The notes: generated by a model not told the origin, from the letters alone. A stretch of DNA of 32,000 nt from Haloquadratum walsbyi C23 (GCF_000237865.1 NC_017459.1:1620001-1652000); one strand, 5' to 3'; numbered from the stretch's first letter, positions 6,081-30,094 are shown. Translations and numbers: made by a program.

Positions 6081-6124
6081 CTATCTGTCGCGGCGATTAA
6101 TTATAGATGGAAACAATCGCAGTT

Positions 6125-6859
6125 TCATAGATCGGCTTTCGAGAAGATGAGCCGTGCGCTGTTTTCTTTGAGCCATTCCGCGTGTTCCACATACTCGGGA
6201 TGATACTCTGAAACAAGATCCCAGAACGCCTGTGTATGATTCGGTTCACGGAGATGCGCTAATTCGTGGACCACAATATAGTCAATCACATCAGGTGAAG
6301 CCATCATCAACCGCCAATTGAGACCAAGTGTGCCGGACGGAGAGCAACTTCCCCATCTTGTTCGTTGATTCCGAATTTCGATTTGCGTGTACTCAACTCC
6401 CATTTGAGAAGCATACTGCTCGGCACGGTCGGCAAAGTGTTGGCGTGCCTGATTCCGATAGAAATTCTCCAATGCTCGTTTGACCGATGACTGCTTTACT
6501 GCGCTCTGTCGTAATCGAATCGTCTGGTATTGGTCCGTAGCGGACACAGTGTGGGACTGTCGAGATTCAATTACCAACTCGTGCGTTTCCCCAAGATATG
6601 GAAATTCTTCACCAGCTTCAAATGTCCGTTTAGGGGCTTCATCTCGATATGCTTGGTACATTCGTTGTTTTTCCAGCACCCACGAAGCGTTCTCCTTCAG
6701 TAGTTCTGTCGGAAGAGTATCTATTGAGTGAGGCACAACGACCGTCACCCCGTGAATGTCAACATCAATCCGTGGCTCTGATGCCTCTGCACTCCGCCGT
6801 ATCTCGTATTCAACGCTCTTTCCCAGCAACTCAATCTCGCGGAGTTGGACCTCACTCAT
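6125..6859 (-). CDS. DUF45/COG1451 (M48-like) zinc metallohydrolase
   Basis: HELAHLREPNH carries the HExxH zinc motif. The start overlaps the hsdR stop by 8 nt (TATGAGTGA junction), indicating an operon with hsdR. Confidence 0.85.
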   Translation of the reverse strand: MSEVQLREIELLGKSVEYEIRRSAEASEPRIDVDIHGVTVVVPHSIDTLPTELLKENASWVLEKQRMYQAYRDEAPKRTFEAGEEFPYLGETHELVIESRQSHTVSATDQYQTIRLRQSAVKQSSVKRALENFYRNQARQHFADRAEQYASQMGVEYTQIEIRNQRTRWGSCSPSGTLGLNWRLMMASPDVIDYIVVHELAHLREPNHTQAFWDLVSEYHPEYVEHAEWLKENSARLIFSKADL

Positions 6860-9830: not shown

Positions 9831-11187
9831 GTTGGGCGATTTCGTCGGGCACCTCTATGTTAGTGTCGGTTGTTCTGACTTTCCCCGAGGAGAGGTCTTG
9901 CATGAGTCCCCGTTTTATTCGACTTAATCGCTCCGCAATTTCTTGTTCTTTCTCAATCTCCTCATTTACATTGTCGAGAATTTCGACAACTTTCTCCTGG
10001 ATTTCTATTGGTGGAATCGGAATTGGTAGTCTTCTCATTGAGCCAATATTGAAGTTATTTTGCCCACCCCCTGCTTTCCAGGCGTCAATAAAGCCAATCG
10101 CCTTTTTTGAGTTTATATAGTATTGTAAATATTTTGAAAGTATTTTATTACCCGGGCGAGATATTATCAATGAGAAGCAATTGCCCCCGGCATATTCTTC
10201 ATTAACTACACAACTTTCTCCAAGATTCACACCTGTGCGAACGGTAAGAACATCCCCTTCGTTAAGAATAGATTTCGAATTCTGCTCATTGAATCTTTTT
10301 GAGATATATCTGAGGGAAGAGTCGTCAATGCCGTGTTCACGAACATTCTTTGAGCGAACAAATGGCACCCCGTCATCCGAATTAACATAATGTTCTGTGG
10401 CTCCTGAAACAATACCAACGGTAATCTCGTCACAGACTTCAGAGGCAGATCTAATTTCCCAACTACTTGACACTTCACCAATTCGCGTTTCTTTTGTATC
10501 CTGTTCATTTGATAGCCCGGTAGCAAATATGTCTTGTTTCACCCCAAGCTTTATATTTGATAAAGAATTAATGGCTTTTTGAGTTTTCTCGATCGCCTGG
10601 TCAACCGTGTAGAGTACGGTGGCGATTTTCCGCTGTTCCGACAGAGGGGGAGTAAGAAACTGTAAATCTGGGAAAAAGTCCAACTGGATTGATGGATGAG
10701 TACTCCCAATCCCCAGCCGTTCCAATTCTGGCTGACACCACTGGAAAATATACATAAGAAAATATGGATTAGACAGGTCTGGATAACACTCAAAAGTAAC
10801 AGTACTTTGGTCGGTCGCCATCTCTCGATTAAGAATAGCTGATTCACCTATTGAACCCGTTCGGCATAACGCTAAAGCCCCTTCTGGTATCAGCTTAGCT
10901 CCAGAGTTGGCTAAACCCTCTTCAGTTATGTTATCCTCAGTTTCGTCTATCTCTACAGTATCAAGTCCTGAAAGGTCGTGTATGGCTATCCACGGAATAT
11001 TACCATTCCAGTACTCGTCTGTATCCGTCGAAGGAGTATGTCCTGTTTTTATCTTAGTAATACTATTAGCACCTGCTACATCCCATCCAGATGGAAGTTG
11101 TTCTGCCCTTGTCAGTACGCTTGGACTACGAAAGTTGACTCCTGTCTCCTGATTAGCAATATCGTTGAGCTTCGTTTGTTCACTCAT
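9823..11187 (-). CDS. hsdS: Type I R-M specificity subunit (distal copy, two TRDs)
   Basis: 454 aa. The central conserved region is PPLSEQRKIATVLYTVDQAIEKT. The C-terminal conserved region is RIKRGLMQDLSSGKVRTTD. The stop overlaps the hsdR start. Confidence 0.9.
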   Translation of the reverse strand: MSEQTKLNDIANQETGVNFRSPSVLTRAEQLPSGWDVAGANSITKIKTGHTPSTDTDEYWNGNIPWIAIHDLSGLDTVEIDETEDNITEEGLANSGAKLIPEGALALCRTGSIGESAILNREMATDQSTVTFECYPDLSNPYFLMYIFQWCQPELERLGIGSTHPSIQLDFFPDLQFLTPPLSEQRKIATVLYTVDQAIEKTQKAINSLSNIKLGVKQDIFATGLSNEQDTKETRIGEVSSSWEIRSASEVCDEITVGIVSGATEHYVNSDDGVPFVRSKNVREHGIDDSSLRYISKRFNEQNSKSILNEGDVLTVRTGVNLGESCVVNEEYAGGNCFSLIISRPGNKILSKYLQYYINSKKAIGFIDAWKAGGGQNNFNIGSMRRLPIPIPPIEIQEKVVEILDNVNEEIEKEQEIAERLSRIKRGLMQDLSSGKVRTTDTNIEVPDEIAQHG

Positions 11188-11262
11188 AATTCAGTGCCTC
11201 CATATGCTGGGTCATCTGAGCCTCGATTTCGTCCCTCCTTCCCGTTGTCCAAGTCTCGAAAG
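11180..11262 (-). pseudogene. remnant of an hsdM 3' end fused to the start of the distal hsdS
   Basis: 11179-11229 matches 12684-12734 (the true hsdM 3' end / hsdS start) with about 3 mismatches in about 51 nt by eye. It translates to ...DEIEAQMTQHMEALNYE*, the same C-terminal peptide as HsdM. An in-frame stop lies upstream and there is no start. Confidence 0.7.
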
Positions 11263-11325
11263 CTCACAAGGGTATGATCGAACAAGAGGAATATAGAATA
11301 TCTCACAGTCTTTTTGAATGTAGCA

Positions 11326-12690
11326 TTAACCATGCTGTGCGACTTCCTGTGGAACATCTATATTCACGTCGGTCGTTCGGACTTCGCCTGAGAGGAGGTC
11401 TTGCATAAGTGCCCGTTTGAGACGTTGGAGTCGATCTTTTTTATTTTTCTCAGAACTAATTTTATCATCCATGGCTGACAACGATTCAGCTATTTTATTC
11501 TGTTCTTTTTTGCTTGGTCTAAATACTTTGGATGATCTCACAAACTCCATGGGAGCCATGTTCTTCATCGCTGAGCCTCTTGAACTCAGAACAAGTTGCC
11601 TTTGTCCGACTTTTGACTCTAAAAAGTATTTCATATAATTTACATTGAATAAATCGTCGTTGACTGAAAACTTGAGCAGCGCCTGATTTATTACACCCTG
11701 TTCATACTCTGAAGGCACTTTTGCAACCTTCCCTAATGTACCAGAGCAACTTATCAGCAGGTCGTCTTCCTCAACACTAAATCGCTCCATATCACGGTAT
11801 TTTTCTTTTGTAATATAGTAATCCCCATAATCAAATTCATCATATATTACATTCTGTTGCTGATATACTTTGTATCCTGAATCAACGAAAATTTCCTTTT
11901 TTAACATTCCACCAAACGGTCCTCTTCTGAGCCCGTTTTCCCCCTCTTTAGAGGATACTATCGTCTCAATTTCCCATTCTGCTGGCTTTGAATATATGAA
12001 AGCACCAATCCTAATATTTTCATAGCTCTCGTGATTGTAATACCCATCGAGGAACAAGTCATCCAACAGACCGCACTTCACTCTTTTTGTTTGATTGATG
12101 ATTTCTTCAGTCTTCTGAATCGCTTGGTCAACGGTGTGGAGGACGGTGGCGATTTTGCGCTGTTCTGAGAGTGGAGGGATAGCAATCTCTAACACTCCAA
12201 ACCGAGATGTATTCAAGTTTATTTGAGTACTTCCAGGTGCAAGAGATTTCAAGTAATTTTGTTGCCAGCTGATGTACTCATACAGATAATGTGGGTTCAA
12301 ATCATTCTCATAGTCTCGTAAAATGAGCCAACCGTCGTGAACACAAGATCTTGTCCCAGCGAACATCGGATAGCCACAAGTCCCACTATTGCTGACTAAA
12401 AGCGTCCCTGAATCAACTAATTTGCTCTTCTCAGCACCCTTTTCAGTAACAGTATCCTCTGTTTCTCCCGTGTATTTCTGGCTCTTCACATCCACGTCCC
12501 CAATTTTTATCCACGGGATGTCTCCCCCAAACAACTCAGGGTCGCCCTTCGGACGTGGTGACGCTCCCCGAGTGATTTCCATAATTTCATCAGCTTGATT
12601 CATATCCCACCTTTTAGCCAAAGAAGACTCATTCGAGGCTTTTGACTCACTAAATTCAGAAAACTCATCCAACGTCGCATCTTCACTCAT
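11326..12690 (-). CDS. hsdS: Type I R-M specificity subunit (proximal copy, two TRDs)
   Basis: 454 aa. The conserved regions are PPLSEQRKIATVLHTVDQAIQKT and RLKRALMQDLLSGEVRTTD. The TRDs look unrelated to those of the other copy. The start overlaps the hsdM stop by 8 nt. The stop is followed by an ATGGTTAA relic of the hsdR start. Confidence 0.9.
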   Translation of the reverse strand: MSEDATLDEFSEFSESKASNESSLAKRWDMNQADEIMEITRGASPRPKGDPELFGGDIPWIKIGDVDVKSQKYTGETEDTVTEKGAEKSKLVDSGTLLVSNSGTCGYPMFAGTRSCVHDGWLILRDYENDLNPHYLYEYISWQQNYLKSLAPGSTQINLNTSRFGVLEIAIPPLSEQRKIATVLHTVDQAIQKTEEIINQTKRVKCGLLDDLFLDGYYNHESYENIRIGAFIYSKPAEWEIETIVSSKEGENGLRRGPFGGMLKKEIFVDSGYKVYQQQNVIYDEFDYGDYYITKEKYRDMERFSVEEDDLLISCSGTLGKVAKVPSEYEQGVINQALLKFSVNDDLFNVNYMKYFLESKVGQRQLVLSSRGSAMKNMAPMEFVRSSKVFRPSKKEQNKIAESLSAMDDKISSEKNKKDRLQRLKRALMQDLLSGEVRTTDVNIDVPQEVAQHG

Positions 12691-14212
12691 AATTCAGAGC
12701 CTCCATATGCTGGGTCATCTGAGCCTCAATATCATTTCGCTCTGCCTGTAACTCCCGTAACTTTGCTAACTCATCTTCAACGTCAATATCCTCCTCTGGT
12801 TCGGTCGTATCGACGTACAAAGCGATGTTCAGGTTGTAGTCGTTCTCTCGGATCTCGTCCATTCTGACTGTCCGACTCACCCGTTCTTCTGTCGTCCAGT
12901 CTCGGAAGTTCCCAACGATGTGGTCAAGCCCCTCCTCAGTGAGCTGATTCTGGTTCGAGAGTTCGTCATAAAAGTCCTCATCAGCGGCGTGAATGAACTG
13001 CACCTCGCCCTCTCTATCAGTTGGCTTGTCGGTGTTCAGCACAAGGACAGCGGACGGAATCGAATTATTCTGAAAGAGGTTCTCGGGAAGTCCGACAATC
13101 GCCTCCAACATATCATTCTCCAACATCGGCTTCCGGTATCGCTGTTCGTGCTTTCTGAATAAAACGCCATGAGGAATCACAATAGATGCTTTCCCAGCTT
13201 CCCCGTCCTGATCGGGTCTTTTCAGTTGTTTTGCGATGTGCATGATGAAGGCGTAGTCACCGCGGTCAGCTCGGGGAAGTTTCTTATGCCAGTCAAAACG
13301 GTCGTATGGATCATCCTGAAGTTCGTCTTTCGCCCAGTCTGCGGAGAACGGGAAATTAGCGAGCACTCGATTGAAGCGGGCAACTGAGTTATCTGATTCG
13401 TCGGTAAATTGCGGATCAGCGAGTGAGTCCTCCCGTTCAATCTCTCCGTTGAGTCCGTGAATGGAGAGATTCATTTTGGCGATGGCGGCAATATCAGGGT
13501 TGATTTCTTGTCCTGTAAATTTCAGTTTTTTCGGCTCGCCGTTCTGCTCTTCACGGTAGTACCGAGCCGCCTCGATGAGCATCCCGCCGGAACCAACAGT
13601 CGGATCGTGGAAGTCGTGTCCATCCTCAAATTCATCAACAAGCCGAACACACAGGTTGACAATTTGTGGCGGGGTAAAGAACTGCCCACCAGACTTGCCC
13701 TCCTCCTCTGCGAAGTGGCGAACCAAGTCCATATACGCCTCACCGAGCATATCTGGCGGGACGCTGTCTGTATCTAAGTCGTATTTCGAGAGGTGTTCAA
13801 CGAGCCGTCCAAGTCGATCATCACCGAGAGCGTCTGCGTCGATGTAATCAGCTCGGAAGACGCCTCTTAATTCAGGGTTTACCTCAACGAGTGCGTCGAA
13901 ACTCTCGTTGAGTGCCTCGTCCACGTTATCACTGACCGCTCGAACGTCCTCCCACATGTACCCATCTGGTATAACAGGAATATCGTAGAGATTCTCACGA
14001 CGAGCGAACTCCTCACCATACTCTTCAAGATTCTCCTGATACTGCTTATCAAACTCATCGGAGATAGCTTTGTAATAGACAAGCGGAAGAATGTACTCTT
14101 TATAATCAGTCGAGTCAACTGCATCGCGGATAATATCAGCACACTTGAACAGGTGCGAGTCGATTTCATCAAGAGATACAGACATATGAGATAAATCTAT
14201 GTCCCTGTTCAA
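12683..14212 (-). CDS. hsdM: Type I R-M N6-adenine DNA methyltransferase subunit
   Basis: 509 aa. The AdoMet motif is DPTVGSGGML and the catalytic motif is NFPF (LANFPFSADW). The N-terminal HsdM domain is present. Confidence 0.95.
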   Translation of the reverse strand: MNRDIDLSHMSVSLDEIDSHLFKCADIIRDAVDSTDYKEYILPLVYYKAISDEFDKQYQENLEEYGEEFARRENLYDIPVIPDGYMWEDVRAVSDNVDEALNESFDALVEVNPELRGVFRADYIDADALGDDRLGRLVEHLSKYDLDTDSVPPDMLGEAYMDLVRHFAEEEGKSGGQFFTPPQIVNLCVRLVDEFEDGHDFHDPTVGSGGMLIEAARYYREEQNGEPKKLKFTGQEINPDIAAIAKMNLSIHGLNGEIEREDSLADPQFTDESDNSVARFNRVLANFPFSADWAKDELQDDPYDRFDWHKKLPRADRGDYAFIMHIAKQLKRPDQDGEAGKASIVIPHGVLFRKHEQRYRKPMLENDMLEAIVGLPENLFQNNSIPSAVLVLNTDKPTDREGEVQFIHAADEDFYDELSNQNQLTEEGLDHIVGNFRDWTTEERVSRTVRMDEIRENDYNLNIALYVDTTEPEEDIDVEDELAKLRELQAERNDIEAQMTQHMEALNYE

Positions 14213-14402
14213 GTAGTCTGTGGTAAAATGAACGAGAGTGAACAGGAAGATACCAGCACCGACGAATCAAGTGCGATTGAAATGGATTGACGGAGATGCG
14301 AACGCAAAGAGTTGTAGTTAATGCCAATTCCGCCCTCCTTTTGTCGTTGATACTTTTAGAACGAACAGTGGTAACGCTACTTATCGAGATACTGGCTGCG
14401 CC

Positions 14403-14421
14403 CTTCCCGTCGTTCTCAGCC
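14403..14421. repeat. right copy of the 19-nt perfect inverted repeat
   Basis: CTTCCCGTCGTTCTCAGCC is the reverse complement of 833-851. It lies 4 nt from the integrase stop codon (14426-14428). Confidence 0.8.
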
Positions 14422-14425
14422 AATA

Positions 14426-15457
14426 CTACAACTTATCAGCCCACTCCATTTGTCGATCTCGTCGGTCTTCCTCAGTTGGCGTATCATAATGCTTCTTCAA
14501 CACCTCCGTCGTTGCATCCACCCTATCCCCAATCGTATCAAAATCAGCCCCCTTATTACGCATATAAGTCACAAACCCCGCCCGAACACTATGAGGTGAA
14601 ACCGAATCCGGGCACTTTGAAGCGTGATTGTAACTCGTCCAATCACATTTCTCCGGGTCTTTATCTATCGGACACTCCATACCAATATAACACGGCTCAG
14701 TAATTCTATATATATTTCTTTGAATCGTCGATTTTTGTGGTCGCCCGTTTTTGGTTGCAACAAGCGGCTTTCTATTTTCATCATCAACAACACTGGGTCG
14801 AGTTTCCTCAATATAATCAGAAAGAAGCTCACCAACATTCCCGGAAACAGGCACTTCCCGTTCTCCCCAACGGTTATTTTTCAACGGTGTTCCTGTCTGT
14901 GGACGATTTTTGAATTTAATCACAGGTCGTTCGTACTCGTCAGGATAGAAGTCTCTGAGATCGAGTGCCCGAATACCACCAGTGCGAGCGCCGGTTTTCC
15001 ACATCAAGGTAAACAAAGCGTGTCGCAACGAAGCATACTCGTATTTGCTCAGGTACTTTTCGATAGCTGTTGCGTGTTCAGAGTGAAGGGCAACTTTTCG
15101 AGCTTGTTGTCGTTTATTTGCTGTTGGAACTTTGACTTTTTTTGCAAGCCCGCTTACAACAGCGTTAATTGCTTCCCATTCTTCGACAGCCAACCGGAAT
15201 GTTCTCATTGAGTTTTCAAGCGTGGTTGGGGCAACGTTTTCTTGTCGGTGGGCAAGATATTCGCGGCACATTCTGCTGTCGAGATCGTTGAGGTTTTCAA
15301 GTTCAACGTCGGGAAGGTCAGTCCATTCGAGAAAACGGTTGAGGCGACAGGTGTGTTCGTAGATAGTTGATTGGGAAAGTTCTGATTCCCGGCTTTGCAA
15401 GTACATTTGAACGCCTTCTTGTGGAGTCAGTGGTTCAAGTCCGTGGATTCGGGTCAT
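14426..15457 (-). CDS. tyrosine recombinase / phage-type integrase
   Basis: The catalytic signature is ARTGGIRALDL (Arg), HSVRAGFVTYM (HxxR) and LKKHY (Tyr). The N-terminal SAM-like domain is present. The ORF extends to 15502, but MTRIHGLEPLTPQEG at 15457 is the likely start. Confidence 0.9.
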   Translation of the reverse strand: MTRIHGLEPLTPQEGVQMYLQSRESELSQSTIYEHTCRLNRFLEWTDLPDVELENLNDLDSRMCREYLAHRQENVAPTTLENSMRTFRLAVEEWEAINAVVSGLAKKVKVPTANKRQQARKVALHSEHATAIEKYLSKYEYASLRHALFTLMWKTGARTGGIRALDLRDFYPDEYERPVIKFKNRPQTGTPLKNNRWGEREVPVSGNVGELLSDYIEETRPSVVDDENRKPLVATKNGRPQKSTIQRNIYRITEPCYIGMECPIDKDPEKCDWTSYNHASKCPDSVSPHSVRAGFVTYMRNKGADFDTIGDRVDATTEVLKKHYDTPTEEDRRDRQMEWADKL

Positions 15458-15538
15458 GGGAATAATGATTTGGCTCCGGGAGTAGGTACAGGAAGGTGGC
15501 AAAGTTGCGGTTATGGAGCGAACTATGTGAGCGACAGA

Positions 15539-16925: not shown

Positions 16926-16983
16926 GTGAACTACCCCTGCCTACTCAGCGGCTGACGCCGCTTTCTTGAGGGTGGGGGCTTCT
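16926..16983 (+). repeat. about 57-nt structured intergenic motif, copy 1
   Basis: GTGAAC..CCTACTC-AGCGGC-tgac-GCCGCT-TTCTTGAGGGTGGGGGCTTC. It is homologous to 25096-25152, with a compensatory change in the hairpin stem. Confidence 0.5.
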
Positions 16984-17147
16984 CTTACAGCCCGCTAAGA
17001 AAGTAAAATCGATATGATTAATATTGAATCACATCCAATGACTGTTTTATGATCACTCTGTGATCAGTGCGTCATTTGCTTATCTGTCAGCACCACATCA
17101 TCGTGTCTGCCGACAGAACAATACTACTGCTCACACAGTGTAGGATA

Positions 17148-21338: not shown

Positions 21339-22910
21339 ATGGTGAGCACAACTCTTGTACTTGGACTCACCGTGATGACGCTTATTGGGTTCACAATTAC
21401 TGGTATGTGGTATAGCCAGGGTCGGGTTACATCAATTGAAGATCTCATTTCCGCACGGAATCAAGCGGGAGCTAATCGGATAACAGCAACACTTGTTGCA
21501 TCAGTTATGGGTGTGTGGATTCTGTTCGCAGCACCGGAAGCAGGAGCAGGGTTTGGTGTCGCAGCAGTTATTGGATATGCCGTTGGCGAGGCTGTACCGA
21601 TGTATGTTTATTCTCGGGTAGGTCCACGAATTCGAGAGTTGATTCCATCAGGACACTCACTCACTGAGTATGCCCGTGCACGCTATGGAACAGCAATGTA
21701 TGCGTTTGTCGTCGGTGTCAGCGGTCTGTATATGTTTGTGTTCGTTGCGGCGGAGTTGACTGGGATTGCAGGGGCACTTGCATTTGTTGCTGATGTTCCA
21801 CAGTGGCAAACAGCAACACTCGTTGGTGGTTTTGTATTACTATATACCGGCTATGGCGGACTTCGGGCAAGTATATTCACTGATACAGTACAGGCAGTTG
21901 TCGTTATCCCATTGTTAGCTGTTGCATTCATAGCAACGGTGTTTGCACTTGGTGGACCAAGTTCAGTTCTCGGAAATATCACAGCCGCTGATCCAGGACT
22001 TCTTGATCCAACAGCCGCAGCAGGGTTCCAGTTCGGGCTTGCACTTGCGTTTGCTATCCTTGGAGCGGAGTTACTTAATCAAACATGGTGGCAACGAATC
22101 TATGCGGGAACAGACAGTGAGAGTATCGCAGTTGCATTCCGCCGAGCGACGGTTCTGAATGGTCTTATTGTCTTTATCGCTGCATTTCTTGGTGTTGTTG
22201 CAGCGGGACATACAGATATCGTGACCAACCCCACAAGTGCAGCATACAATGCTGATGTAGCATTTTTTGTCTTACTCGAGACAGCGGTCCCAGAGTGGGT
22301 GATTCTTGTTGTGGTACTGCTTGCATTGTCACTTGTGATGAGCTCTGTCGATACACTATTTAATGCGCTTTCGAGTCTCATCACCGTTGATCTTGCTCGG
22401 ATATATCCGGGGAGTACTGATCGCCAACTTCGATGGATCGCACGTGGTTTTACACTTTGTATTGCATTTGCGGCTATCTATGTTAGTGTCCGAGCACAGA
22501 GTGTGCTTCGATTGTTTTTCCTTGCAGATCTTCTTGGGACAGCCCTTGCATTCCCACTTGTATATGGGCTCTACAGTGAGCGACTCACTGGCTTTGGTGC
22601 ACTCGCTGGGAGTCTCTCTGGACTTGCGGTTGGACTTGCGTATTTTCCGGACCTTCGTGGCTTTATTACTGCAATCCCGCTTGTCGGTCCAGCACTTCCG
22701 AGTGCTGACCCACTGTATCTCACCGCGTTTGGCGGATCATTTCTCACCTCAATCGGTGTTACAATAGTTATCTCTCGACTCACGACAACACGATTTGATC
22801 TTGATACGCTTAGTGCTGAGATCACACGTCTTGATGAACCAATAGCAGATGGTGGTCGGACGTATTCTGCGGAATCATCCCTATGCCCTGATGGGAACTC
22901 CGATGACTGA
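21339..22910 (+). CDS. sodium:solute symporter family transporter
   Basis: 523 aa with about 13 hydrophobic helices and SSS-like features. Substrate is unknown. Confidence 0.8.
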   Translation: MVSTTLVLGLTVMTLIGFTITGMWYSQGRVTSIEDLISARNQAGANRITATLVASVMGVWILFAAPEAGAGFGVAAVIGYAVGEAVPMYVYSRVGPRIRELIPSGHSLTEYARARYGTAMYAFVVGVSGLYMFVFVAAELTGIAGALAFVADVPQWQTATLVGGFVLLYTGYGGLRASIFTDTVQAVVVIPLLAVAFIATVFALGGPSSVLGNITAADPGLLDPTAAAGFQFGLALAFAILGAELLNQTWWQRIYAGTDSESIAVAFRRATVLNGLIVFIAAFLGVVAAGHTDIVTNPTSAAYNADVAFFVLLETAVPEWVILVVVLLALSLVMSSVDTLFNALSSLITVDLARIYPGSTDRQLRWIARGFTLCIAFAAIYVSVRAQSVLRLFFLADLLGTALAFPLVYGLYSERLTGFGALAGSLSGLAVGLAYFPDLRGFITAIPLVGPALPSADPLYLTAFGGSFLTSIGVTIVISRLTTTRFDLDTLSAEITRLDEPIADGGRTYSAESSLCPDGNSDD

Positions 22911-22929
22911 TTTAACTGAAAAATAAGAC

Positions 22930-23420
22930 TTGACATCTTCCTCCGCGTGAACGCGGAGGGATCCCACGGCACCACACCGTTGCGCTGAGTTGGGAGTCTC
23001 AGGTGCAGGTTCATAGACCGCCAAGCTCACACGCCGTGCGAATCAGTATGAAACCACATAACGGATAGCCTTCTTGGACTGGCAGTACCACATCTTACTT
23101 TCGGTACTCCTATCCTCAGCCGAAAACGCGTTCGTGTGTTGGCTTCCCTAAAGGAGCGGTGGTCGGCACTCGGGTTCACCAAACTCGGAGTTACTTGTAT
23201 TGGTGACGATAGCCCGATGGTTGTTTGTTTCCCACGTGGAGCACACCCTGCTTCCAGTGTGGGCGGACACTCACACTTGAATCGCCACCTTTGAATCGCC
23301 ACCTTTCGGGCACTCGGCTACACTAGGATCAGAGCCAGTGCGCCGACAGTTATATATACGTCATGTTGCGACCGTTCGGAAATCCCCGGTCTGAAGACCG
23401 TGGTATTGCGCCTGTATTAG
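22930..23420 (+). repeat. large hairpin-rich non-coding repeat, copy A (most diverged; first hairpin has no insert)
   Basis: It starts TTGACATCTTCCTCCGCG-TGAA-CGCGGAGG. It shares internal blocks with copies B and C: GGACT..AGTACC..GGTACTCCTATCC and GGAGTTACTT. The 3' boundary is approximate. Confidence 0.6.
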
Positions 23421-23575
23421 CTATAACTGAATAATATTGAGTACGATATGCTAATCATTGTGCTGATGACTTTCATGATTATAAGACTCTATTTCTCACT
23501 CAAATGCGGTTGACCTGGGAGACCACAGAAGGGTTATTGCATATAATCTACAATATTAATCAAGAGAGATATCAT

Positions 23576-24145
23576 ATGAGCACGACACCTGATGACTGGC
23601 AAGCAGCGATAAACGAGAGTCGAACGAACAAAGAACGATATTTTCGTAGTAGCGATCGGTCACCGGTGCCCCCGGAGTTTAGAGGCGAGTCATTTCCTGG
23701 CTTAGCGTATTATTCAATCGATCCAGAGTATCGATTTACCGTTCCACTCACGCGTGATGATGACCCAGAAACTATTACCGTCGAGACAACTGCTGATGGA
23801 GAGCAAACATACCGCCGCGTTGGGACCTTTGATATCACAGTTGAGACGACTCCAGTCTCAATCGCGGCATATGAACCAACGGATGGCAGTGATCGACTAT
23901 GGGTTCCATTCCGCGATGCAACAAGTGGATCCGAAACATACGGTGCAGGACGATATATTGATCTTGAGCCAACAGAAGACCACAATGACGATGGGACATG
24001 GACACTCGATCTGAATCGTGCGTATAATCCAACATGTGCGTACAATCCAGCATATGAGTGCCCGCTTGTCCCTGCGGAAAATTGGCTTGATGTTCCAATT
24101 GAGGTCGGCGAAAAAGACTTTCCTGGAAATTTCCATGATGATTAG
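23576..24145 (+). CDS. DUF1684 family protein
   Basis: ETYGAGRYIDLEP and LDLNRAYNPTCAYNPAYECP are typical of DUF1684. The start is at the ATG of MSTTPDDW. Confidence 0.85.
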   Translation: MSTTPDDWQAAINESRTNKERYFRSSDRSPVPPEFRGESFPGLAYYSIDPEYRFTVPLTRDDDPETITVETTADGEQTYRRVGTFDITVETTPVSIAAYEPTDGSDRLWVPFRDATSGSETYGAGRYIDLEPTEDHNDDGTWTLDLNRAYNPTCAYNPAYECPLVPAENWLDVPIEVGEKDFPGNFHDD

Positions 24146-24383
24146 GAATGGGTAATCGCCACAATCAGCTGTCACTGCTAATAAGTGCCATACGAGAGAT
24201 AAGCTAAAGCTGACATTGACTTTGACTGTGGCAAGCTACCGACAGATATCAAGCGCCTCCATTTCGATATAAAAATATCACATTGAGAAATACGCAGCGT
24301 CTCACTCACACTGTGGGTGTGTGAGGTACATGGCTATTAGACGTCATTAGTATGATACATACTCATTTCATGATCGACATAGA

Positions 24384-24893
24384 TCATTCTGAATGACGAA
24401 TCGTCAAGACAGGTGCATCTGAGAGACGAACGACCTTTTCTGCAACACTTCCAAGGAGATAATGATCAACACCGCGTCGCCCGTGTGTCCCCATCGTAAT
24501 CAAGTCAATATGATGATCATCAGCGTAATCAAGTATTTTCTGATAGACATCAGCACCGACCTGAACCTCCGTTCGGGTCCCAACCTCACCAAGATCGTCT
24601 GCAACATCATCAACAACTGTCTCACCGTACTCAAAGAGTGACCGACGCGTTTCCTCAGGAATCTCCGGTGATCCACGCATTCCTGATTGTTTCCCTGTCG
24701 ATGATTCACCGGTCATCCCGGAGATATTATCTGGCGATAACTCTGCGATCATACCTGATCCAACATGCCCGGGATCGACGATGAACAATACATGCACAGT
24801 TGCATCATGATTGAGTGCAATACTCTCAAGATGATCGAATGCTGCCTCAGCGTTCTCGCTCCCGTCTGTCGGATACAATATTTGACTGTACAT
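24384..24893 (-). CDS. universal stress protein (UspA family)
   Basis: Motifs are ILYPTDGSENA and ITMGTHGRRGVDHYLLGSVAEKVVRLSDAPVLTIR. The start is taken at the internal Met (MYSQ...); its coordinate is derived from the ORF track frame. Confidence 0.85.
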   Translation of the reverse strand: MYSQILYPTDGSENAEAAFDHLESIALNHDATVHVLFIVDPGHVGSGMIAELSPDNISGMTGESSTGKQSGMRGSPEIPEETRRSLFEYGETVVDDVADDLGEVGTRTEVQVGADVYQKILDYADDHHIDLITMGTHGRRGVDHYLLGSVAEKVVRLSDAPVLTIRHSE

Positions 24894-25095
24894 CCAGTAT
24901 AACCATTCAAATAACAATCATATAAAATAATTCATTATTGGCAATAATATATTATTATTTACTTATTTATTTGATGAATCACTTCGGGGGTCATATCAAA
25001 GCCTCGAGGCACTCACCTTGTTTATGCGTAGAATTCATTATATTGTAAACAATTTGTGGTTATAGAAGGTGCATCTAGAATCACATCGGTCTGCA

Positions 25096-25152
25096 GTGAA
25101 CGGCCTCGACCTACTCAGCCGTCAGAGACGGCTTCGGTGAGGACGGGGCTTC
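25096..25152 (+). repeat. about 57-nt structured intergenic motif, copy 2
   Basis: GTGAAC..CCTACTC-AGCCGTC-agag-GACGGCT-TCGGTGAGGACGGGGCTTCC. It aligns with 16926-16983. Confidence 0.5.
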
Positions 25153-25518
25153 CAGCGAAGTTTCCTTCAGGGTCTAATCAGATTCACAAGCAGAGAGAAT
25201 TATTCGTTGTGGGGCGCCCATGGCCCGCTCTAAACTCTCTTTCTCAAGCATTTTGTTTGAGAGGTTGAACATACCTGTCTGAACAGTGGCGAAACGACAA
25301 GAACGGATCGTGTTTCCGTCTGCGCTGCTGGTTTGAATTAGTTCTACGTTAAATAATAACTTATTTGATAGCTTAGATGTTAGTTATTCCAGTCTGCCAG
25401 GTGTATCCCCTCGCTACTCGTTCGTTTCACTCACTTCTTGAGGAGGGGGTCTTGCCCTCAGATTTGGATAATACGCCAACCAGGATGTTTATTGCTCTGA
25501 TAGAACAATATTGCCTAT

Positions 25519-26196
25519 ATGGACAGGCGGAATTATCTTCACGTTATTGCCGGCGCAGGGGCTTTCGCAACAGCTGGATGTCTTGGGTCAACACTGAGCT
25601 TTCGTGATAGTAATCCGAATGTCATTCTCGCCGAACCTGAGCGTGAGTACACAAGCGAAGAGTTGCCATATCCAGCATGGGGGCAGCGTGTTCCAGACGT
25701 AACACTTCCTAGTTCAATCGGGTCTCAGACGGTAACAATCAGAGATATTGAGACACCGTCGATTGTAACATTCTTTTATAGTCACTGTCAGACTGTCTGT
25801 CCAGTGTTAATCCAAACAGTACGTAACATCCAGGCAGACGCAATTGAAAATGACTATGCTGATCAAGTAACGTTCCTTCCGACGACATTCGACCCACAGC
25901 GTGATGACGCCGCACGACTTCGTGAATATAGCAAAACGATGAATATTGCAGTGGATAATGACAATTGGCAGTTCCTCCGCCCAGCATCGCCCGAACGAGC
26001 AAAAGCTGTCGTTGAGGAGGAATTCGGGGTTACCTTCGAGCGAACACATCCAGATGACATGGATATGTACATGTTCGCTCACTCTGCACTCACATATTTA
26101 ATTAATGCTGATGGGTATATTGAGCGTGCCTATCGAACACAGGCGCCAGATATCAGCCAAATGATCACCGACCTCAAACCACTCCGAGAGCAATGA
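25519..26196 (+). CDS. SCO1/SenC copper chaperone, Tat/lipobox signal
   Basis: The N-terminus MDRRNYLHVIAGAGAFATAGC has a twin-arginine motif and a lipobox. The CQTVCP motif and the downstream conserved His are present. Confidence 0.85.
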   Translation: MDRRNYLHVIAGAGAFATAGCLGSTLSFRDSNPNVILAEPEREYTSEELPYPAWGQRVPDVTLPSSIGSQTVTIRDIETPSIVTFFYSHCQTVCPVLIQTVRNIQADAIENDYADQVTFLPTTFDPQRDDAARLREYSKTMNIAVDNDNWQFLRPASPERAKAVVEEEFGVTFERTHPDDMDMYMFAHSALTYLINADGYIERAYRTQAPDISQMITDLKPLREQ

Positions 26197-26798
26197 GGCG
26201 GCGTGCGGTTCTCAAAGCTACTGGTGGGATTGTGCTTACCGGTGGAAGTGTGATGATACTACAGCGTGGAATCCCGACCCTGAATCCAACTGAGACACAA
26301 TCAGGCACCACGAGCGAATCCAGTGAGGCAGTTAATTCGAAGACGACATTTCCGATTCAGCTATCGACATTAGGCGCTGAGGGGTCTACAGAGAGAACAG
26401 TACGGGTTCCAACTGCGGGGATGCCGACAGTGATCGATTTATTCGCAACATGGTGCACACCATGTCAGGCGCAGATGGACGCACTCTCAACAGTCTATAG
26501 CAAATATAACGATCAGGTCGGATTTATTTCGGTCACAAACGAGCGGATTGGTGGAACGCTCACCCGTGCAGATATAAGATCGTGGTGGAATGAGCATGAT
26601 GGAAGGTGGAGTGTTGGTCTTGACCCCAAAAGCAAATTGATGAATATCCTTGGCGCACAGGGACTTCCATATCTTGCTATTACTGATACAACAGGAGAAA
26701 TACGATGGGAAGATACCGGTATGACATCAGCATCGACGCTCCAACGTGAGCTAGATGCTGTCTTATCTGAAAGTGAGGATGAGAACGAGAACGAGTGA
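26193..26798 (+). CDS. TlpA/ResA-like thiol-disulfide oxidoreductase
   Basis: The active site is WCTPCQ and the N-terminus has an RRR signal. It overlaps the SCO1 stop by 4 nt. Confidence 0.85.
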   Translation: MRRRAVLKATGGIVLTGGSVMILQRGIPTLNPTETQSGTTSESSEAVNSKTTFPIQLSTLGAEGSTERTVRVPTAGMPTVIDLFATWCTPCQAQMDALSTVYSKYNDQVGFISVTNERIGGTLTRADIRSWWNEHDGRWSVGLDPKSKLMNILGAQGLPYLAITDTTGEIRWEDTGMTSASTLQRELDAVLSESEDENENE

Positions 26799-26928
26799 GT
26801 ATAATTACAACCCTATCGATACAGCCGTTTTGATGATTCAATCTGTCACAAGCGCATGAGTCCTGTTGTATGTATACATGCATAATGTATCGAACCATCT
26901 GCATGGCTTTTATTCAATTGTGGAGACA

Positions 26929-27627
26929 ATGAGTATATCATTTCTAAGTATAATCGAGCAGATTGCACTCTTTGGATTCAAGACAAAAGTTGTTGGTATA
27001 CTCGCATTTGCCGCAGGTGCCGGGGTTGCAACATTTTTTGCACCCTGTGCATTTCCATTACTGCCGGGCTATATTGGCTATTATTTTAATCAACCCAAGA
27101 CACCATCGGGATTGCTTTCAGGGGTCACAGCCGCGAGTGGGGCAGTTGTGATGCTCGGAGTTGTCGCAGGGCTCACAGCAATCATTGGTCGTCGTCTCAC
27201 CACAATATTACCTCTATTCGAACCGGTTATTGGAGTTGCACTGATTATATTTGGAGTATTGTTATGGGTTGAATGGACGCCAACAACAATTCCACTTACG
27301 CGTCGACCGGACTCATTAGTTGGATTCGGTATCTTTGGTGCAGTCTATGCGGTTGCAGCCGCTGGATGTGTCATTCCCTTATTCCTTGGCGTGGTTACGC
27401 AGGCAGTTTCACTCTCGCCGACAAATGCGGCAGCCGTCCTTTTCACCTATGCTGCCGGGGTTGCACTTCCACTTATTGGCGTGACACTCCTTGCAGAGTC
27501 TGGTCTGACTGCCTGGCAGAGACTCGGGCATTATACAGGGCGGATTGAACAAATAGCAGCAGGTCTCCTTGTCACCGCTGGCGCTGGACAATTATATCTC
27601 TCGATTGTCGTACTTGATGTACTATAA
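26929..27627 (+). CDS. ccdA: CcdA/DsbD-family cytochrome c biogenesis thiol transporter
   Basis: Motifs are FFAPCAFPLLPGYIGYY and AAGCVIPLF, with six or more hydrophobic helices. The start is at the ATG of MSISFL. Confidence 0.85.
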   Translation: MSISFLSIIEQIALFGFKTKVVGILAFAAGAGVATFFAPCAFPLLPGYIGYYFNQPKTPSGLLSGVTAASGAVVMLGVVAGLTAIIGRRLTTILPLFEPVIGVALIIFGVLLWVEWTPTTIPLTRRPDSLVGFGIFGAVYAVAAAGCVIPLFLGVVTQAVSLSPTNAAAVLFTYAAGVALPLIGVTLLAESGLTAWQRLGHYTGRIEQIAAGLLVTAGAGQLYLSIVVLDVL

Positions 27628-27672
27628 CTATTATTAATCTTACATTCGCCACCTAAATGGAGTCCATTGCAA

Positions 27673-28294
27673 TTGACATCCTCCTCCGCGTGTGGTGCTC
27701 CTGAAAGCTTATTGAGGAATTCAATCCAAAATCTTGTCATAGAGTAGCTGCTGATACTATTGTGTAGGACCTGTGATTCGAAATGTTTCACGGAGTACTA
27801 TTAATGCGAAGGAATCCTGAGCGTGAGTGATGGAGATTTCAAGATTGCTATCCCATTAAGCACCCAAACGGTAAGAATCCGTAATGTTGCTTGCGGTCTG
27901 TAGCGGGTGGGACTATTGGGAGTACCAAGTCCCCGGTACTGCTATCCTCGACTCCGTTCGACCCTTCGTGGTTATTTGTGCCCGACGAGGGTTGAGTGGG
28001 CGTCAACGGACTTGGAGTTACTTTGAGTCTGCTTACAACGGTCAGTTCCAGTCAACTCCGGTCGAATCCTGCGAATCCTGTGAGGATTCGTCGGTTATTG
28101 ACTAGTTCGGATTACTGTTTGATCGCTTGTGGCGGGGAGGCCGCCATCGTCGGACGAGGCAGAATCACTCTGTTCTCGCCTGATAGTGATTCGTTCGAAT
28201 AGTTTCGCCGACGGTGTCGAATGACGCGGGTTCAGCGGCTCACATTACCGACACCAATAATCACGGCGATGAAGACTTGCACTAATCATTATGA
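27673..28294 (+). repeat. large hairpin-rich non-coding repeat, copy B
   Basis: The 5' 19-mer TTGACATCCTCCTCCGCGT is identical to copy C. Shared blocks are GGAATCCTGAGCGTGAG and GGCGG..GCCGCCATCGTCGGA. The 3' module 28207-28294 is about 85 percent identical to 30006-30094, and similarity stops at TATGA. Confidence 0.75.
27692..27804. mobile_element. about 113-nt insert in the loop of the first hairpin of copy B
   Basis: It lies between CCTCCGCGT and a degenerate 3' stem half TGCGAAGGA, where copy A has only the loop TGAA. Its sequence differs from the insert in copy C. No second copy in the window. Confidence 0.35.
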
Positions 28295-28369
28295 TTCCCA
28301 TGTCAGATTTTGACTGTCTGCCGATTCAATGTATGGATTAATAATCTCGGGATAGCTGTTGAACGTGAG

Positions 28370-28545
28370 TTGACTCCGAGGTGTCGGATTCATCCTGCGG
28401 CTTAGTGATTTAACAAACTCCTGGGTGAACTAATTCACTAATTCGATTCGAGAGAACCACTCTGACCGATGCATGTCTAGTTAAGCACCCACTTCTTCTG
28501 TGGACTACTAAGCCGCAGGGATTCTCCTCAAATCTGTGTGACTCG
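28370..28545 (+). repeat. truncated 5' portion of the large repeat family (copy D)
   Basis: TTGAC + CCGAGGTGTCGGATTC + ATCCTGCGGC [insert] GCCGCAGGGATTCTCC. This parallels the first hairpin of copy C, but similarity is lost afterwards. Confidence 0.5.
28402..28511 (+). mobile_element. about 110-nt MITE-like element N1, copy a, inside a perfect 8-bp stem
   Basis: TTAGTGATTTAAC...GGACTACTAA is flanked by CCTGCGGC / GCCGCAGG. It is about 90 percent identical by eye to 29402-29512, while the flanks are much less similar. Confidence 0.55.
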
Positions 28546-28673
28546 ATTAAAAGGGTTCATACAAATCATTCCGATGAGCAGGCGAAAAACCTCGCCCCTC
28601 AGGGGGAGAAATGCCAAGTGTTTGAATATCTTGCAACGATGTGCTCTTTACTCCTGGATTATACTATCACCGT

Positions 28674-29309
28674 ATGCGTGGAGGTGTCGTTCTTGCTGGT
28701 GGTCGATCGACACGCTTTGGAAATCGAGACAAAGCAGTCGTGACGCTTGCTGGGACGCCACTGATTAAACGAGTTGTTGATCGAATCGCAGGGGTCGTTG
28801 ATGAAATTGTCATCAATTGTCGTCAGTCACAACGTGATTCGATTACCGCAGCACTAGCTAAGAGTGATGTTGAGTTACAATTCGCAATTGATCAGACTCC
28901 AGATCGCGGTCCAATGGCAGGATTAGCTCGTGGACTTGAGATAACAGATGCAACATATACAATCGCCGTTGGTTGTGATATGCCATTTATTGACCCTGAT
29001 TTTGTTGAATATTTGTTTGAGCGCATTACCGAAGGATACGCTGATGCTGTTGTGCCACGTCTAAATGAATGGTATCAGCCGACGCATGCAGTATACACGA
29101 CGAATCCTATGTATGCTGCATGTCGCCGTGCGCTCGATAATGATGCACGACAGCTTATTGCCCCATTTGAGTATCTCGATGTGCTTACGATATCGAAATC
29201 AACAATCGATACACACACAACACAGCGGACATTCAGAAATGTGAATACGCCTGAAGAACTCTCGATGGCTGCAAGTGAACTCACCACCAATGATGACTCG
29301 ACTAATTAA
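28674..29309 (+). CDS. mobA: molybdenum cofactor guanylyltransferase
   Basis: MRGGVVLAGGRSTRFGNRDKA is the typical LAGGxSxRxG..DK N-terminus. The start is at the internal ATG 28674. Confidence 0.85.
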   Translation: MRGGVVLAGGRSTRFGNRDKAVVTLAGTPLIKRVVDRIAGVVDEIVINCRQSQRDSITAALAKSDVELQFAIDQTPDRGPMAGLARGLEITDATYTIAVGCDMPFIDPDFVEYLFERITEGYADAVVPRLNEWYQPTHAVYTTNPMYAACRRALDNDARQLIAPFEYLDVLTISKSTIDTHTTQRTFRNVNTPEELSMAASELTTNDDSTN

Positions 29310-29383
29310 CGGGGTGACGCTCTCCCTGCGCTGAGCAGTAGTTACTGAATTGGGTTCTTATCGAAGTAGCCGCAATAGCGGGA

Positions 29384-30094
29384 TTGACATCCTCCTCCGC
29401 GTATAGTGATTCAACAAACTTCTGGGTGAACTGATTCACTCATTCGATGCGAGAGAACTATTCTGACTGATGCATGTCTACTCAAGCACCCACTTCTTCT
29501 GTGAACTACTAAACGCGGAGGAATCCTGAGCGTGAGCGTGAATGGTGGAGATTGCAGGTTTGCAGCTCCACCAAACCCCGGTACGGTGAGAATCCATGTG
29601 GGGTTCACGGACTGTGGCGAGTCGAGTGGGACTGCTGGGACTGCTGGGAGTGCCACATCTCAGCCCCCGGTATTCCTATCCCCCCATCGTATTCGGACTC
29701 CCGGAGTTGGTTGTGCCGGAGAATCCGGCAGATTTCGACAGACTCGAAGTTACTTTCTGCGGTGTTTGCAAGCAGTCGGGCACTGCAACTGCATCTGCAT
29801 CGGTTCAGTATATTATATGAACCGACCGTTCACCTGACTGGTTCCGATTCCTGTCTGAGTGCATGGGGCGGACAGGCCGCCATCGTCGGAGTGACCGGAA
29901 TCGCCCTGCCCTGTTCCCAATCTGATTCCTATCTATAGATAGGCTTGCCTGTCAGTTCAAGCTCCGGAGTCCCAAATCTCAGCGTGACTATTGCAGCGGA
30001 GATTTCCTCCGGGGTGTCGAATGACGCGGGTTTAGCGACTCCCATCACCGACAGGAATGATCACGGCGGTAAAGACTTGCACTGATCACTATGA
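29384..30094 (+). repeat. large hairpin-rich non-coding repeat, copy C
   Basis: Same 5' 19-mer and 3' module as copy B. It has an internal tandem duplication, GGGACTGCTGGGACTGCTGGG. Only short, mutually overlapping ORFs occur, in several frames. Confidence 0.75.
29402..29512 (+). mobile_element. about 110-nt MITE-like element N1, copy b, in the loop of the first hairpin of copy C
   Basis: ATAGTGATTCAAC...GAACTACTAA lies between CTCCGCG and CGCGGAG. The internal hairpin GTGAA-ctg-TTCAC is conserved in both copies. Confidence 0.55.

Follow-up and report, generated by a model that had tools for sequence, protein, structure and literature searches.

Haloquadratum walsbyi is credited as the organism in which palindrome-associated transposable elements (PATEs) were defined (Gomes-Filho et al., 2015; PMC4615843). 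In its genomes, the HqIRS56-type group (HqIRS56-70) comprises elements of 466–688 bp present in ~80 copies per genome, with strain-specific insertions recorded for HqIRS56 (7 and 7) and HqIRS57 (1 and 2) (Dyall-Smith et al., 2011; PMC3119063, Table S8). HqIRS56-type PATEs have neither a transposase nor inverted terminal repeats, target TTATA, and often have their palindromes disrupted by small mobile repeats (SMRs). For HqIRS56 itself, the published 5′ end is TTATA followed by TGCTGAGCAGGCGCAATACCACGATCTTCAGGCCGTGGAT and the 3′ end is ...GGGATTCCTCCGCGTGAACCCGGAGGAGGATGTCAA, and the tnpB transposon ISHwa21 has the 3′ end ...GGGATTCCTCCGCGTGAACGCGGAGGAGGATGTCAA (PMC3119063, Table S9). Here we analyzed a 32,000-nt stretch of H. 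walsbyi C23 (GCF_000237865.1 NC_017459.1:1620001-1652000, hereafter the window; GC content 46%), in which an original prediction had pointed to three co-oriented, hairpin-rich non-coding elements, A, B and C, and had proposed that they were transposon derivatives, a large structured RNA or regulatory RNAs associated with gene 3′ ends. Our data indicate that A, B and C, together with a fourth fragment at 28309-28536 (D), are very probably PATEs, that is, protein-less, non-autonomous members of the IS200/IS605 group, which lie on the minus strand of the window, carry an ωRNA-like module and would rely on TnpA and TnpB acting in trans.

Elements of this kind have been linked to the guide RNAs of TnpB. 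A feature near the 3′ end termed the "RE-like tetraloop", a stem of 8 bp with the loop UUCA, occurs in three places: in the sotRNAs, which overlap the 3′ end of IS1341-type tnpB, in HgcC, and in a transcribed PATE (PMC4615843). The same study describes VNG_R0052 of Halobacterium salinarum, which, like the elements of the window, is an intergenic, transposase-less IS200/IS605 derivative with the RE-like tetraloop, and whose expression demonstrates that such elements can be made as RNA. VNG_R0052 is, however, a 99-nt fusion of left end (LE) with right end (RE), whereas the elements studied here span ~490–700 nt and contain a large conserved core. The sotRNAs are now equated with ωRNAs (PMC12558985), and PATEs have been reported to "often encode ωRNAs", which are used by TnpB in trans, the elements being mobilised by TnpA in trans (Meers et al., 2023; 10.1101/2023.03.14.532601). 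The PATE-like elements of Geobacillus stearothermophilus in that work are also protein-less and have LE and RE in common with tnpB or iscB elements, but they are bacterial, differ in their ends and in their transposon-adjacent motif (TAM), and no conserved middle module was reported for them. The description of the HqIRS56-type PATEs covers neither ωRNA content nor a cross-genus unit of ~520 nt (PMC3119063).

Results

The shared 19-nt sequence is the right end of HqIRS56-type elements

The claim of three co-oriented copies with a common 19-nt end proved correct. The 19-mer TTGACATCYTCCTCCGCGT is found, exact and on the plus strand, at 22930, 27673 and 29384 and nowhere else in the window; ~0.03 matches are expected by chance, and three occurrences were reached in 0 of 100 shuffles. 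This supposed 5′ end is the reverse complement of the HqIRS56 and ISHwa21 right end (...CCTCCGCG-loop-CGCGGAGGAGGATGTCAA). TTGAC corresponds, in reverse complement, to the right-end terminus ...GGATGTCAA and is therefore the element's own terminus and not, as had been proposed, a flanking target. Judged from these termini, the functional strand is the minus strand of the window, and the target TTATA lies at the end opposite to TTGAC. Among the three original interpretations, the PATE-like IS200/IS605 element was thus right in kind, as the published termini indicate, but reversed in strand and wrong in its target.

In copy A, both ends could be matched to published elements. Local alignment pairs 22965..22930 with the 3′ end of HqIRS56 (terminus ...GGGATTCCTCCGCGTGAAC.CGGAGGAGGATGTCAA) and a 66-nt segment, 22995..22930, with the 3′ end of ISHwa24; at the other side, 23426..23382 on the minus strand agrees with the HqIRS56 5′ end at 39 of 45 positions, TTATA included. 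In B and C, both RE arms and the terminus of the HqIRS56-type right end (...GATTCCTCCGCG-loop-CGCGGAGGAGGATGTCAA) are present, split by inserts. The left halves of B and C differ from the HqIRS56 consensus: within a group described as heterogeneous, the B/C family has another left end, the canonical form of which resembles HqIRS54 and ISHwa24 (GAGGAGAA..hairpin..GGATGAATC). The element ends are, in addition, homologous to those of tnpB-bearing IS605-type elements, as seen in the ISHwa21 and ISHwa24 termini and in tnpB-bearing loci.

As in the published HqIRS56-type PATEs, subterminal palindromes lie near both ends, and there are no inverted terminal repeats. The RE hairpin is formed by the arms CCTCCGCG/CGCGGAGG, the LE hairpin by CCTGCGGC/GCCGCAGG in the family and in fragment D and by CCACGGTC/GACCGGGG in A, and the family alignment contains four compensatory pairs in the LE hairpin (helix 2). 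The target 5′ of the left end is TTATA in A and in 14 of 16 complete family units, TCATA in B and C, and TCACA in D; flanking direct repeats, as left by target duplication, were not seen at the elements. With lengths of ~490–870 nt, the elements are too short for a transposase gene. They are a real feature, of known kind and largely of known family, and belong to a class already catalogued in Haloquadratum.

Anatomy of copies A, B and C and of fragment D

To describe the elements, we aligned a family profile, built from 16 complete family units, to the window. Copy A (22930..23421, minus strand), with RE at 22930 and LE at 23421, is a complete HqIRS56-type PATE of 492 nt, and its target and TAM, TTATA, follows at 23422..23426 (minus strand; TATAA on the plus strand), the same pentanucleotide as in published HqIRS56. 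For B, the homology extends beyond the original end at 28294 (see below). The RE subterminal hairpin of A at 22938..22957 (minus strand), CCUCCGCG-UUCA-CGCGGAGG followed by AAGAUGUCAA, has an 8-bp stem and a UUCA tetraloop, as placed by the HgcC alignment. From the architecture of TnpB and its ωRNA, the flank 3′ of the RE, 22910..22929 on the minus strand (GUCUUAUUUUUCAGUUAAAU), is predicted to supply the guide when an ωRNA is made by read-through; an SSF symporter gene has its stop codon within this flank, and the alignment of the HgcC model reaches into it. Copy A aligns to the family profile over positions 281-522 only and is an intact copy of a subfamily other than that of B and C.

Copy B (27673..28289, minus strand), a PATE of a pan-haloarchaeal family of ~520 nt, has its RE at 27673 and, as far end, an 82-nt module common with C. 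The RE terminus at 27692-27673 (minus strand; profile positions 503-522) is separated from the core at 28183-27802 (minus strand; profile positions 143-503, 215.7 bits) by a nested, SMR-like insert of ~109 nt in the RE hairpin loop (27693-27801), which breaks the profile alignment exactly between the hairpin arms. Between the core and a canonical LE half lies an odd 125-nt segment (28184..28308, minus strand), which includes the 82-nt module, is unmatched by the profile, and stands in place of profile positions 129-142. The module ends in TATGA at 28290-28294 (TCATA on the minus strand). The homology of B to the family runs on colinearly to 28536, through the canonical left-end hairpin; 28184..28308 may be a piece that was nested or recombined into a single element, or else the junction at which two elements abut.

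This colinear continuation is the fourth piece, D (28309..28536, minus strand), which represents the family's canonical LE half (profile 3-128) and consists of an inner part at 28402-28309 (minus strand; profile positions 34-128, 46.8 bits) and the left end at 28539-28510 (minus strand; profile positions 3-32, of which 3-5 represent the target), and the loop of its LE hairpin holds a nested, SMR-like insert of ~107 nt (28403..28509) that again breaks the profile between the arms. The hairpin arms, CCTGCGGCTTAGT and ACTAAGCCGCAGG, are 100% complementary. Compared to the RE stem, three positions of the LE stem of D differ, each being compensated on the opposite arm.

Copy C (29384..30089, minus strand), likewise a PATE of the ~520-nt family, has its RE at 29384 and ends in the 82-nt module, followed by TATGA at 30090-30094. 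Its RE terminus (29404-29384, minus strand; profile positions 502-522) is followed by a nested, SMR-like insert of ~105 nt in the RE hairpin loop (29405..29509) and by the core (30022-29510, minus strand; profile positions 47-504, 357.6 bits). Within the core, an ωRNA-like (sot0042-like) 3′ module occupies 29510..29700 on the minus strand, with the block GGAUAGGAAUACCGGGGGCU..UGGCACUCCCAGCAGUCCC, and a PATE-specific middle module occupies 29701..29935 on the same strand (approximately profile 100-330). A hairpin in the middle module of C reads GGCGG-ACAGG-CCGCC on the plus strand, and its palindromic stem forms on the minus strand too. The blocks that had been listed as shared were found again: GGAATCCTGAGCGTGAG is present in both B and C, as are GGCGG..GCCGCCATCGTCGGA and the 82-nt far-end module (28213-28294 in B, 30013-30094 in C), which is 87% identical between the two. 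The similarity of B and C ends exactly at TATGA.

The middles between these blocks had been described as full of indels, and these are largely nested insertions of ~110 nt, at 27693-27801, 28403-28509 and 29405-29509. All three inserts measure 105–109 nt, and each sits between the arms of a terminal hairpin. Those of C and D are 90% identical (28403-28509 compared to 29404-29512) and represent a type with a long imperfect inverted repeat, which in C extends from the host stem into the insert over 36 nt at 72% complementarity. The B insert has no similarity to them and, by eye, only a weak inverted repeat. No copies of the three inserts were found in the fetched family loci. Among published elements, the SMRs HqIRS42/43/55 have the same preference: they measure 103–122 bp (HqIRS55, 109–122 bp with an inverted terminal repeat of 23/31), have inverted terminal repeats that are imperfect, and specifically target the palindromes close to the ends of PATEs and of IS605-type transposons (PMC3119063, Table S8 and text). 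The inverted repeat of the C insert is consistent with HqIRS55; the weak one of the B insert is a point of difference. SMR inserts at these sites would disrupt both the recognition by TnpA and the ωRNA 3′ hairpin; B, C and fragment D are therefore probably inactive, immobilised copies.

The same end and core recur across haloarchaea, with and without tnpB

We extended the analysis to other genomes. In a BLAST search against plasmids, Natribaculum, Halorubrum, Haloplanus, Natrinema and Halobacterium were found to contain the core of C (~510 nt, ~77% identity), in each case in unannotated intergenic DNA with no tnpB nearby. Over ~510 nt, C is 77–79% identical to units in Haloquadratum metagenome-assembled genomes (MAGs), Natribaculum, Halorubrum and Haloplanus, and its closest DNA match, a Haloquadratum MAG, reaches only ~79%. 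Scanning a genome collection with the terminus, we obtained matches at at least 120 loci (family loci are labelled L001 etc.). Among the matches listed, nearly all loci are from Halobacteria, Haloquadratum MAGs included; ~45 cover most of the ~520-nt unit, and 16 are complete units of ~515–525 nt ending in ...GCCGCAGGTATTCTCCTTGAnnCTnTATAA, beyond which the flanks diverge. Fourteen of the 16 complete units, which come from different genera, end in the target TATAA in the same orientation as copy A. The unit thus occurs on plasmids and chromosomes of many genera, at 67–93% identity and in unrelated contexts. The copies of Halorubrum, Haloplanus and Natribaculum are ~93% identical, which suggests recent horizontal spread. 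In one case, two family units lie less than 5 kb apart on opposite strands (L041, Halorarius halobius chromosome, 1872-2337 and 6898-7402), pointing to local clustering. Carriage by viruses was considered and dismissed: among five viral-contig matches to the terminus, four are chance matches inside coding sequence and one is a 47-nt contig end.

The original prediction had also proposed a search for tnpB genes flanked by the same end, and such genes exist. Intact or decayed tnpB was found behind the same right terminus at at least seven loci (L007, L042, L101, L072, L096, L092 and L018); the open reading frame (ORF) of L007 encodes the Pfam domains OrfB_IS605 and Cas12f1-like_TNB, and L072 and L101 (~1.6 kb) have both end regions in common with the PATE. 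Across these loci, the tnpB elements and the PATE have only profile positions ~1-100 and ~330-522 in common. Both types can reside in one genome, as in Natrinema gelatinilyticum BND6, which contains a tnpB element (L007) and PATE units (L026, L040).

The elements end in an ωRNA-like module

At gathering thresholds, Rfam gave no match over the whole window. In a permissive scan, HgcC (RF00062) aligned with copy A over the full model, at 23028..22917 on the minus strand (35.6 bits, E 2e-5), its terminal hairpin and AGGAGGUCAG falling on the CCUCCGCG-UUCA-CGCGGAGG hairpin and AAGAUGUCAA of A. For the ~520-nt family, sot0042 (RF02656), a model derived from the RNA at the 3′ end of tnpB in Halobacterium, aligned in full length to a Halorubrum PATE unit (L001 5170..4992, 179 nt, top strand; 36.5 bits, E 6e-6 to 8e-8), and the 179 nt covered by this alignment are homologous to 29510..29700 of C. 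When applied to the tnpB-bearing relatives, sot0042 scored 31–77 bits, also below its gathering score of 88, so that the score of the PATE, 36.5 bits, lies within the range of its tnpB-bearing relatives. Because all these scores are below the Rfam gathering thresholds, we term the module ωRNA-like and do not count it as a family member.

Position and sequence of the matches fit this designation. The HgcC and sot0042 matches lie at the 3′ end of the element on the top strand (the window minus strand), and the models end at the RE hairpin, 9–10 nt before the terminus. Reverse-complementing the block GGGACT..GGAGTRCC..CGGTAYT.CTATCC, which had been noted in all three copies, gives the sot0042 core AGGAGUA.CGG...UUGGCAC...CCA. 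The module is common to the PATE and its tnpB-bearing relatives, which share only this 3′ module and the LE region. In both sequence and structure, the last ~190 nt are homologous to the TnpB guide-RNA scaffold (ωRNA; sotRNA in Halobacterium). Like the ωRNA/sotRNA of haloarchaeal IS1341-type elements, the module occupies the final ~180 nt of the top strand up to the right-end boundary, and it has features of sotRNA (RF02656) and HgcC, namely the terminal 8–9-bp hairpin with a UUYA loop, the block mentioned above and full-model alignments. It differs from sotRNA in having no overlapping tnpB ORF, in scoring below the gathering threshold, in a sequence that has drifted free of coding constraint and in being preceded by a structured, PATE-specific middle in place of tnpB. 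The idea of a large structured RNA was therefore accurate insofar as the structure covaries (see below), but the 3′ part is of a known ωRNA/sotRNA kind and lies on the minus strand. The Halorubrum ezzemoulense megaplasmid (L001) contains a second sot0042 match at 9219-9402, ~4 kb from the PATE unit, which at 161.5 bits exceeds the gathering score; there is no tnpB at this position in the incomplete gene table of the plasmid, and a neighbouring tnpB element or pseudogene is probable.

Conserved structure favours the minus strand

Structure was assessed on 37 non-redundant family members (mean identity 69%), using a conservation-preserving column shuffle as null model, the top strand being the window minus strand and the bottom strand the window plus strand. 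For the 37 members, the minimum free energy (MFE) z-score was −15.4 for the top and −5.9 for the bottom strand, and the covariation z-score was +11.5 and +5.8, respectively. Among the 16 complete units, the consensus fold energy was −97.8 compared to −74.8 kcal/mol, double-sided changes affected 37 of 100 pairs on the top but 20 of 89 on the bottom strand (slid-partner controls, 4–16 and 3–13), and the covariation score was 0.238 on the top strand (slid controls, 0.02–0.07) vs 0.186 on the bottom strand (0.04–0.06). Strand asymmetry was marked for the 3′ module alone (MFE z −8.3 vs −2.1). Since counting wobble pairs was not decisive, the strand call rests on the energies, the covariation and the two covariance-model matches.

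These data bear on the proposal that the copies are structured RNAs of the plus strand, or 3′-untranslated regulatory elements of the upstream genes. The copies do start 19, 45 and 74 nt (A, B and C) after plus-strand stop codons, those of the SSF symporter gene, of a membrane-protein ORF adjoining SCO1 and thioredoxin genes, and of a MobA-like transferase gene, as had been observed; same-side placement in three of three cases is, however, not significant, and on the functional strand the elements are not co-oriented but convergent with these genes, and their predicted guides overlap the gene ends. A plus-strand stem with G·U pairs had been taken as a sign of a plus-strand RNA. In the family, compensatory pairs are lacking from this stem, AGTGCC/GGTACT (helices 9-10), and the members that diverge most (L065, L119) do not keep it paired, whereas 3 of 5 pairs are compensatory in an overlapping top-strand helix, GGGGG/CUCCC (helix 15). 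Moreover, the plus-strand consensus fold is weaker on every measure, the element termini are transposon ends, and the ~520-nt unit recurs in many genomes in surroundings unrelated to one another, both on plasmids and on chromosomes of many genera. A plus-strand RNA argued from G·U pairs is rejected on the family fold and covariation data, and a plus-strand or gene-3′-end function in general appears extremely unlikely.

One further pairing was seen in the family alignment (A4). Columns 51-54 and 616-619 (e.g. L001 4983-5504) contain an invariant, long-range complementarity of 4 bp in 16 of 16 units, by which GACA just 3′ of the LE hairpin pairs with UGUC of the RE terminus GGAUGUCAA (helix 3). 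This complementarity may stem from pairing between LE and RE, or from the 'guide' logic of TnpA known from IS608; because these pairs never vary, they are uninformative about structure.

No protein-coding signal was detected in the elements

The original prediction had seen no coding signal, and all tests agreed with it. They address the concern that the copies derive by decay from a protein gene such as tnpB, for which there is some precedent: published PATEs such as HqIRS71 keep a disrupted C-terminal tnpB coding sequence (PMC3119063), and an ωRNA scaffold normally overlaps the tnpB 3′ end. With a cognate TnpB as tblastn query, neither the three copies nor the family units gave a match at E-values of up to 10, although real remnants were detected in other loci. 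A Pfam search of 47 six-frame ORFs returned none beyond one chance match (E 0.03). Over the same stretch of DNA, the open frames are not consistent from one family member to the next, the variability by codon position is flat (0.157/0.192/0.165), and the lengths of gap runs modulo 3 (62/116/77) have no bias to multiples of three. A decayed protein gene was not borne out by the tblastn, Pfam, codon-position and frame tests; it is rejected on these results, and we regard this origin as barely credible.

The middle module is structured and specific to the PATE

The middle module (profile ~100-330, ~230 nt) is absent from the tnpB-bearing relatives and has no match in Rfam or in Pfam. It contains significant conserved structure (MFE z −9.0 on the top strand, covariation z +7.9, 0 of 100 shuffles as good), with 3, 3, 3 and 6 compensatory pairs in helices 5, 6, 8 and 9 of alignment A4 (6 of 7 pairs in helix 9), and is kept in at least 15 haloarchaeal genera. 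These properties raise the tentative possibility that the module is a functional structured RNA domain, being either an independent non-coding RNA cargo spread by IS605 ends or the 5′ extension of an unusually long ωRNA. As a 5′ extension, it could replace the missing context of a tnpB mRNA, for example in stability, processing or TnpB loading in trans. Several points speak against such a role. Strand asymmetry is weaker for this module (MFE z −9.0 on the top vs −5.8 on the bottom strand), the 5′ half differs in copy A and in other PATE subfamilies, implying that some PATEs with this RE can do without the module, and its similarity between genera may come from recent horizontal spread instead of selection.

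Upstream of the helices, two sequence features stand out. An invariant box, TTnAAGTGACAGG, at profile 106-118 (T, T, A and A being fixed in 36–37 of 37 members) is followed by an AT-rich stretch, TAYATATAGG, at profile 125-135; in C, the two lie at about 29915-29960. The odd 125-nt segment of B, in replacing profile 129-142, falls within this stretch and the columns just after it. In the tnpB-bearing relatives, a TATA-like box precedes the tnpB ATG by 24–27 nt, its distance from the left end being similar. Judging by sequence, TTnAAGTGACAGG and TAYATATAGG may represent a promoter or an internal TTATA-like target, and the TATA-like boxes of the relatives make a promoter retained in the PATE plausible.

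Other mobile remnants and a defence island in the window

Besides the four elements, the window contains further remnants. At 16926-16998 on the minus strand lies a 'terminal-only' mini-PATE of ~69 nt of HqIRS71/ISNph20 type, in which TTAG is followed by CGGGCTGTAAGAGAAGCCCCCACCCTCAAGAAAGCGGCGTCAGCCGCTGAGTAGGCAGGGGTAGTTCAC; its target, TTAG, is the published one, and its terminus is GTAGTTCAC. A 600-nt non-coding gap between genes for Usp and SCO1 proteins (24918-25518) holds further PATE-type right ends on the minus strand, an HqIRS71-like one at 25156..25096 (ending GTTCAC) and an HqIRS46-like hairpin at 25017..24975, and is probably a conglomerate of mobile-element remnants.

Upstream in the window, a type I restriction-modification locus extends over 6855-15502 on the minus strand, comprising hsdR (6855-9830), two tandem hsdS genes (9826-11187 and 11329-12690) with conserved segments that are 77–82% identical (repeats D2, D3 and D5), hsdM (12686-14212), and a directly adjoining tyrosine recombinase gene (14429-15502). 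This layout resembles recombinase-driven shuffling of hsdS. Two genes adjoin the locus, one (4371-6077) for a restriction endonuclease of GmrSD type (type IV) and one (6128-6859) for a YgjP-like metallopeptidase, and the genes at 4371-6859 and the restriction-modification locus form a small defence island.

Discussion

The data allow us to propose how the elements might work. On the minus strand, the layout runs from a 5-nt target and TAM (TTATA; TCATA in B and C) through the left end with its subterminal hairpin and a non-coding core to the ωRNA-like module of ~190 nt and the right-end hairpin, followed by GGATGTCAA. By analogy to characterised relatives, TnpA (a Y1/HUH enzyme) encoded elsewhere would recognise the two top-strand hairpins, excise the element as single-stranded DNA (ssDNA) and reinsert it 3′ of TTATA. 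Transcription toward the right end and into the flank would yield an ωRNA with ~16–20 nt of flanking DNA as guide, which TnpB of an IS1341-type relative (ISHwa21-like) would bind in trans. TnpB would then cut the emptied donor site (TTATA plus guide), and recombinational repair would restore the element. Both steps, the mobilisation by TnpA and the use of the guide by TnpB, are inferred to occur in trans.

A number of observations weigh against assigning the elements to ωRNA-carrying PATEs. The far ends of B and C are without a canonical left-end hairpin, and the target there is TCATA. Both Rfam matches score below the gathering thresholds (35.6 vs 50 bits for HgcC, 36.5 vs 88 bits for sot0042). 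No tnpA or tnpB gene was found in the 32-kb window, and the supply in trans is an assumption. The identity with catalogued HqIRS elements is suggested by matching termini, not by coordinates, and the inserts are assigned to the SMRs by their size, site and inverted terminal repeats. Finally, the wobble count in helices that both strands have in common favours G·U over A·C by only 39 to 26, which is not decisive, and the conserved helices could act in ssDNA during transposition instead of in RNA.

This last point leads to a different account, in which the elements are PATEs whose internal structure acts at the DNA level only, through ssDNA folding in excision and integration or in replication-fork events, with no functional RNA, the ωRNA-like module being a decaying relic of a tnpB 3′ end. 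IS200/IS605 transposition does use top-strand ssDNA hairpins, as established for IS608 and ISDra2. The above-null structure of both strands (bottom z −5.9), the weak wobble asymmetry and the sub-threshold Rfam scores are further points in its favour. TnpA, however, needs the subterminal hairpins only, and yet PATE subfamilies and tnpB elements, which differ elsewhere, retain the 3′ module, the structure of which is strongly strand-asymmetric. A functionless relic should not hold 67–93% identity and compensatory changes across many genera. In Halobacterium, moreover, a PATE is transcribed and its overexpression alters growth (PMC4615843). We therefore consider a purely DNA-level role improbable and favour PATEs that carry an ωRNA-like module on the minus strand.

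For annotation, the elements should be recorded as IS200/IS605 PATEs with nested SMR insertions, rather than as new RNA genes or 3′-untranslated regulators. The case also calls for caution, as strand and target are easily reversed when such elements are read from sequence alone. In the wider family, a protein-less unit of ~520 nt with a TnpB guide-RNA scaffold, distributed across haloarchaea, supports the view of guide RNAs and nucleases as modular and trans-acting. If the middle module is functional, the family would represent a natural ωRNA-only element with an added RNA domain, and this would bear on how guide-RNA genes may separate from their nucleases toward CRISPR-like arrangements.

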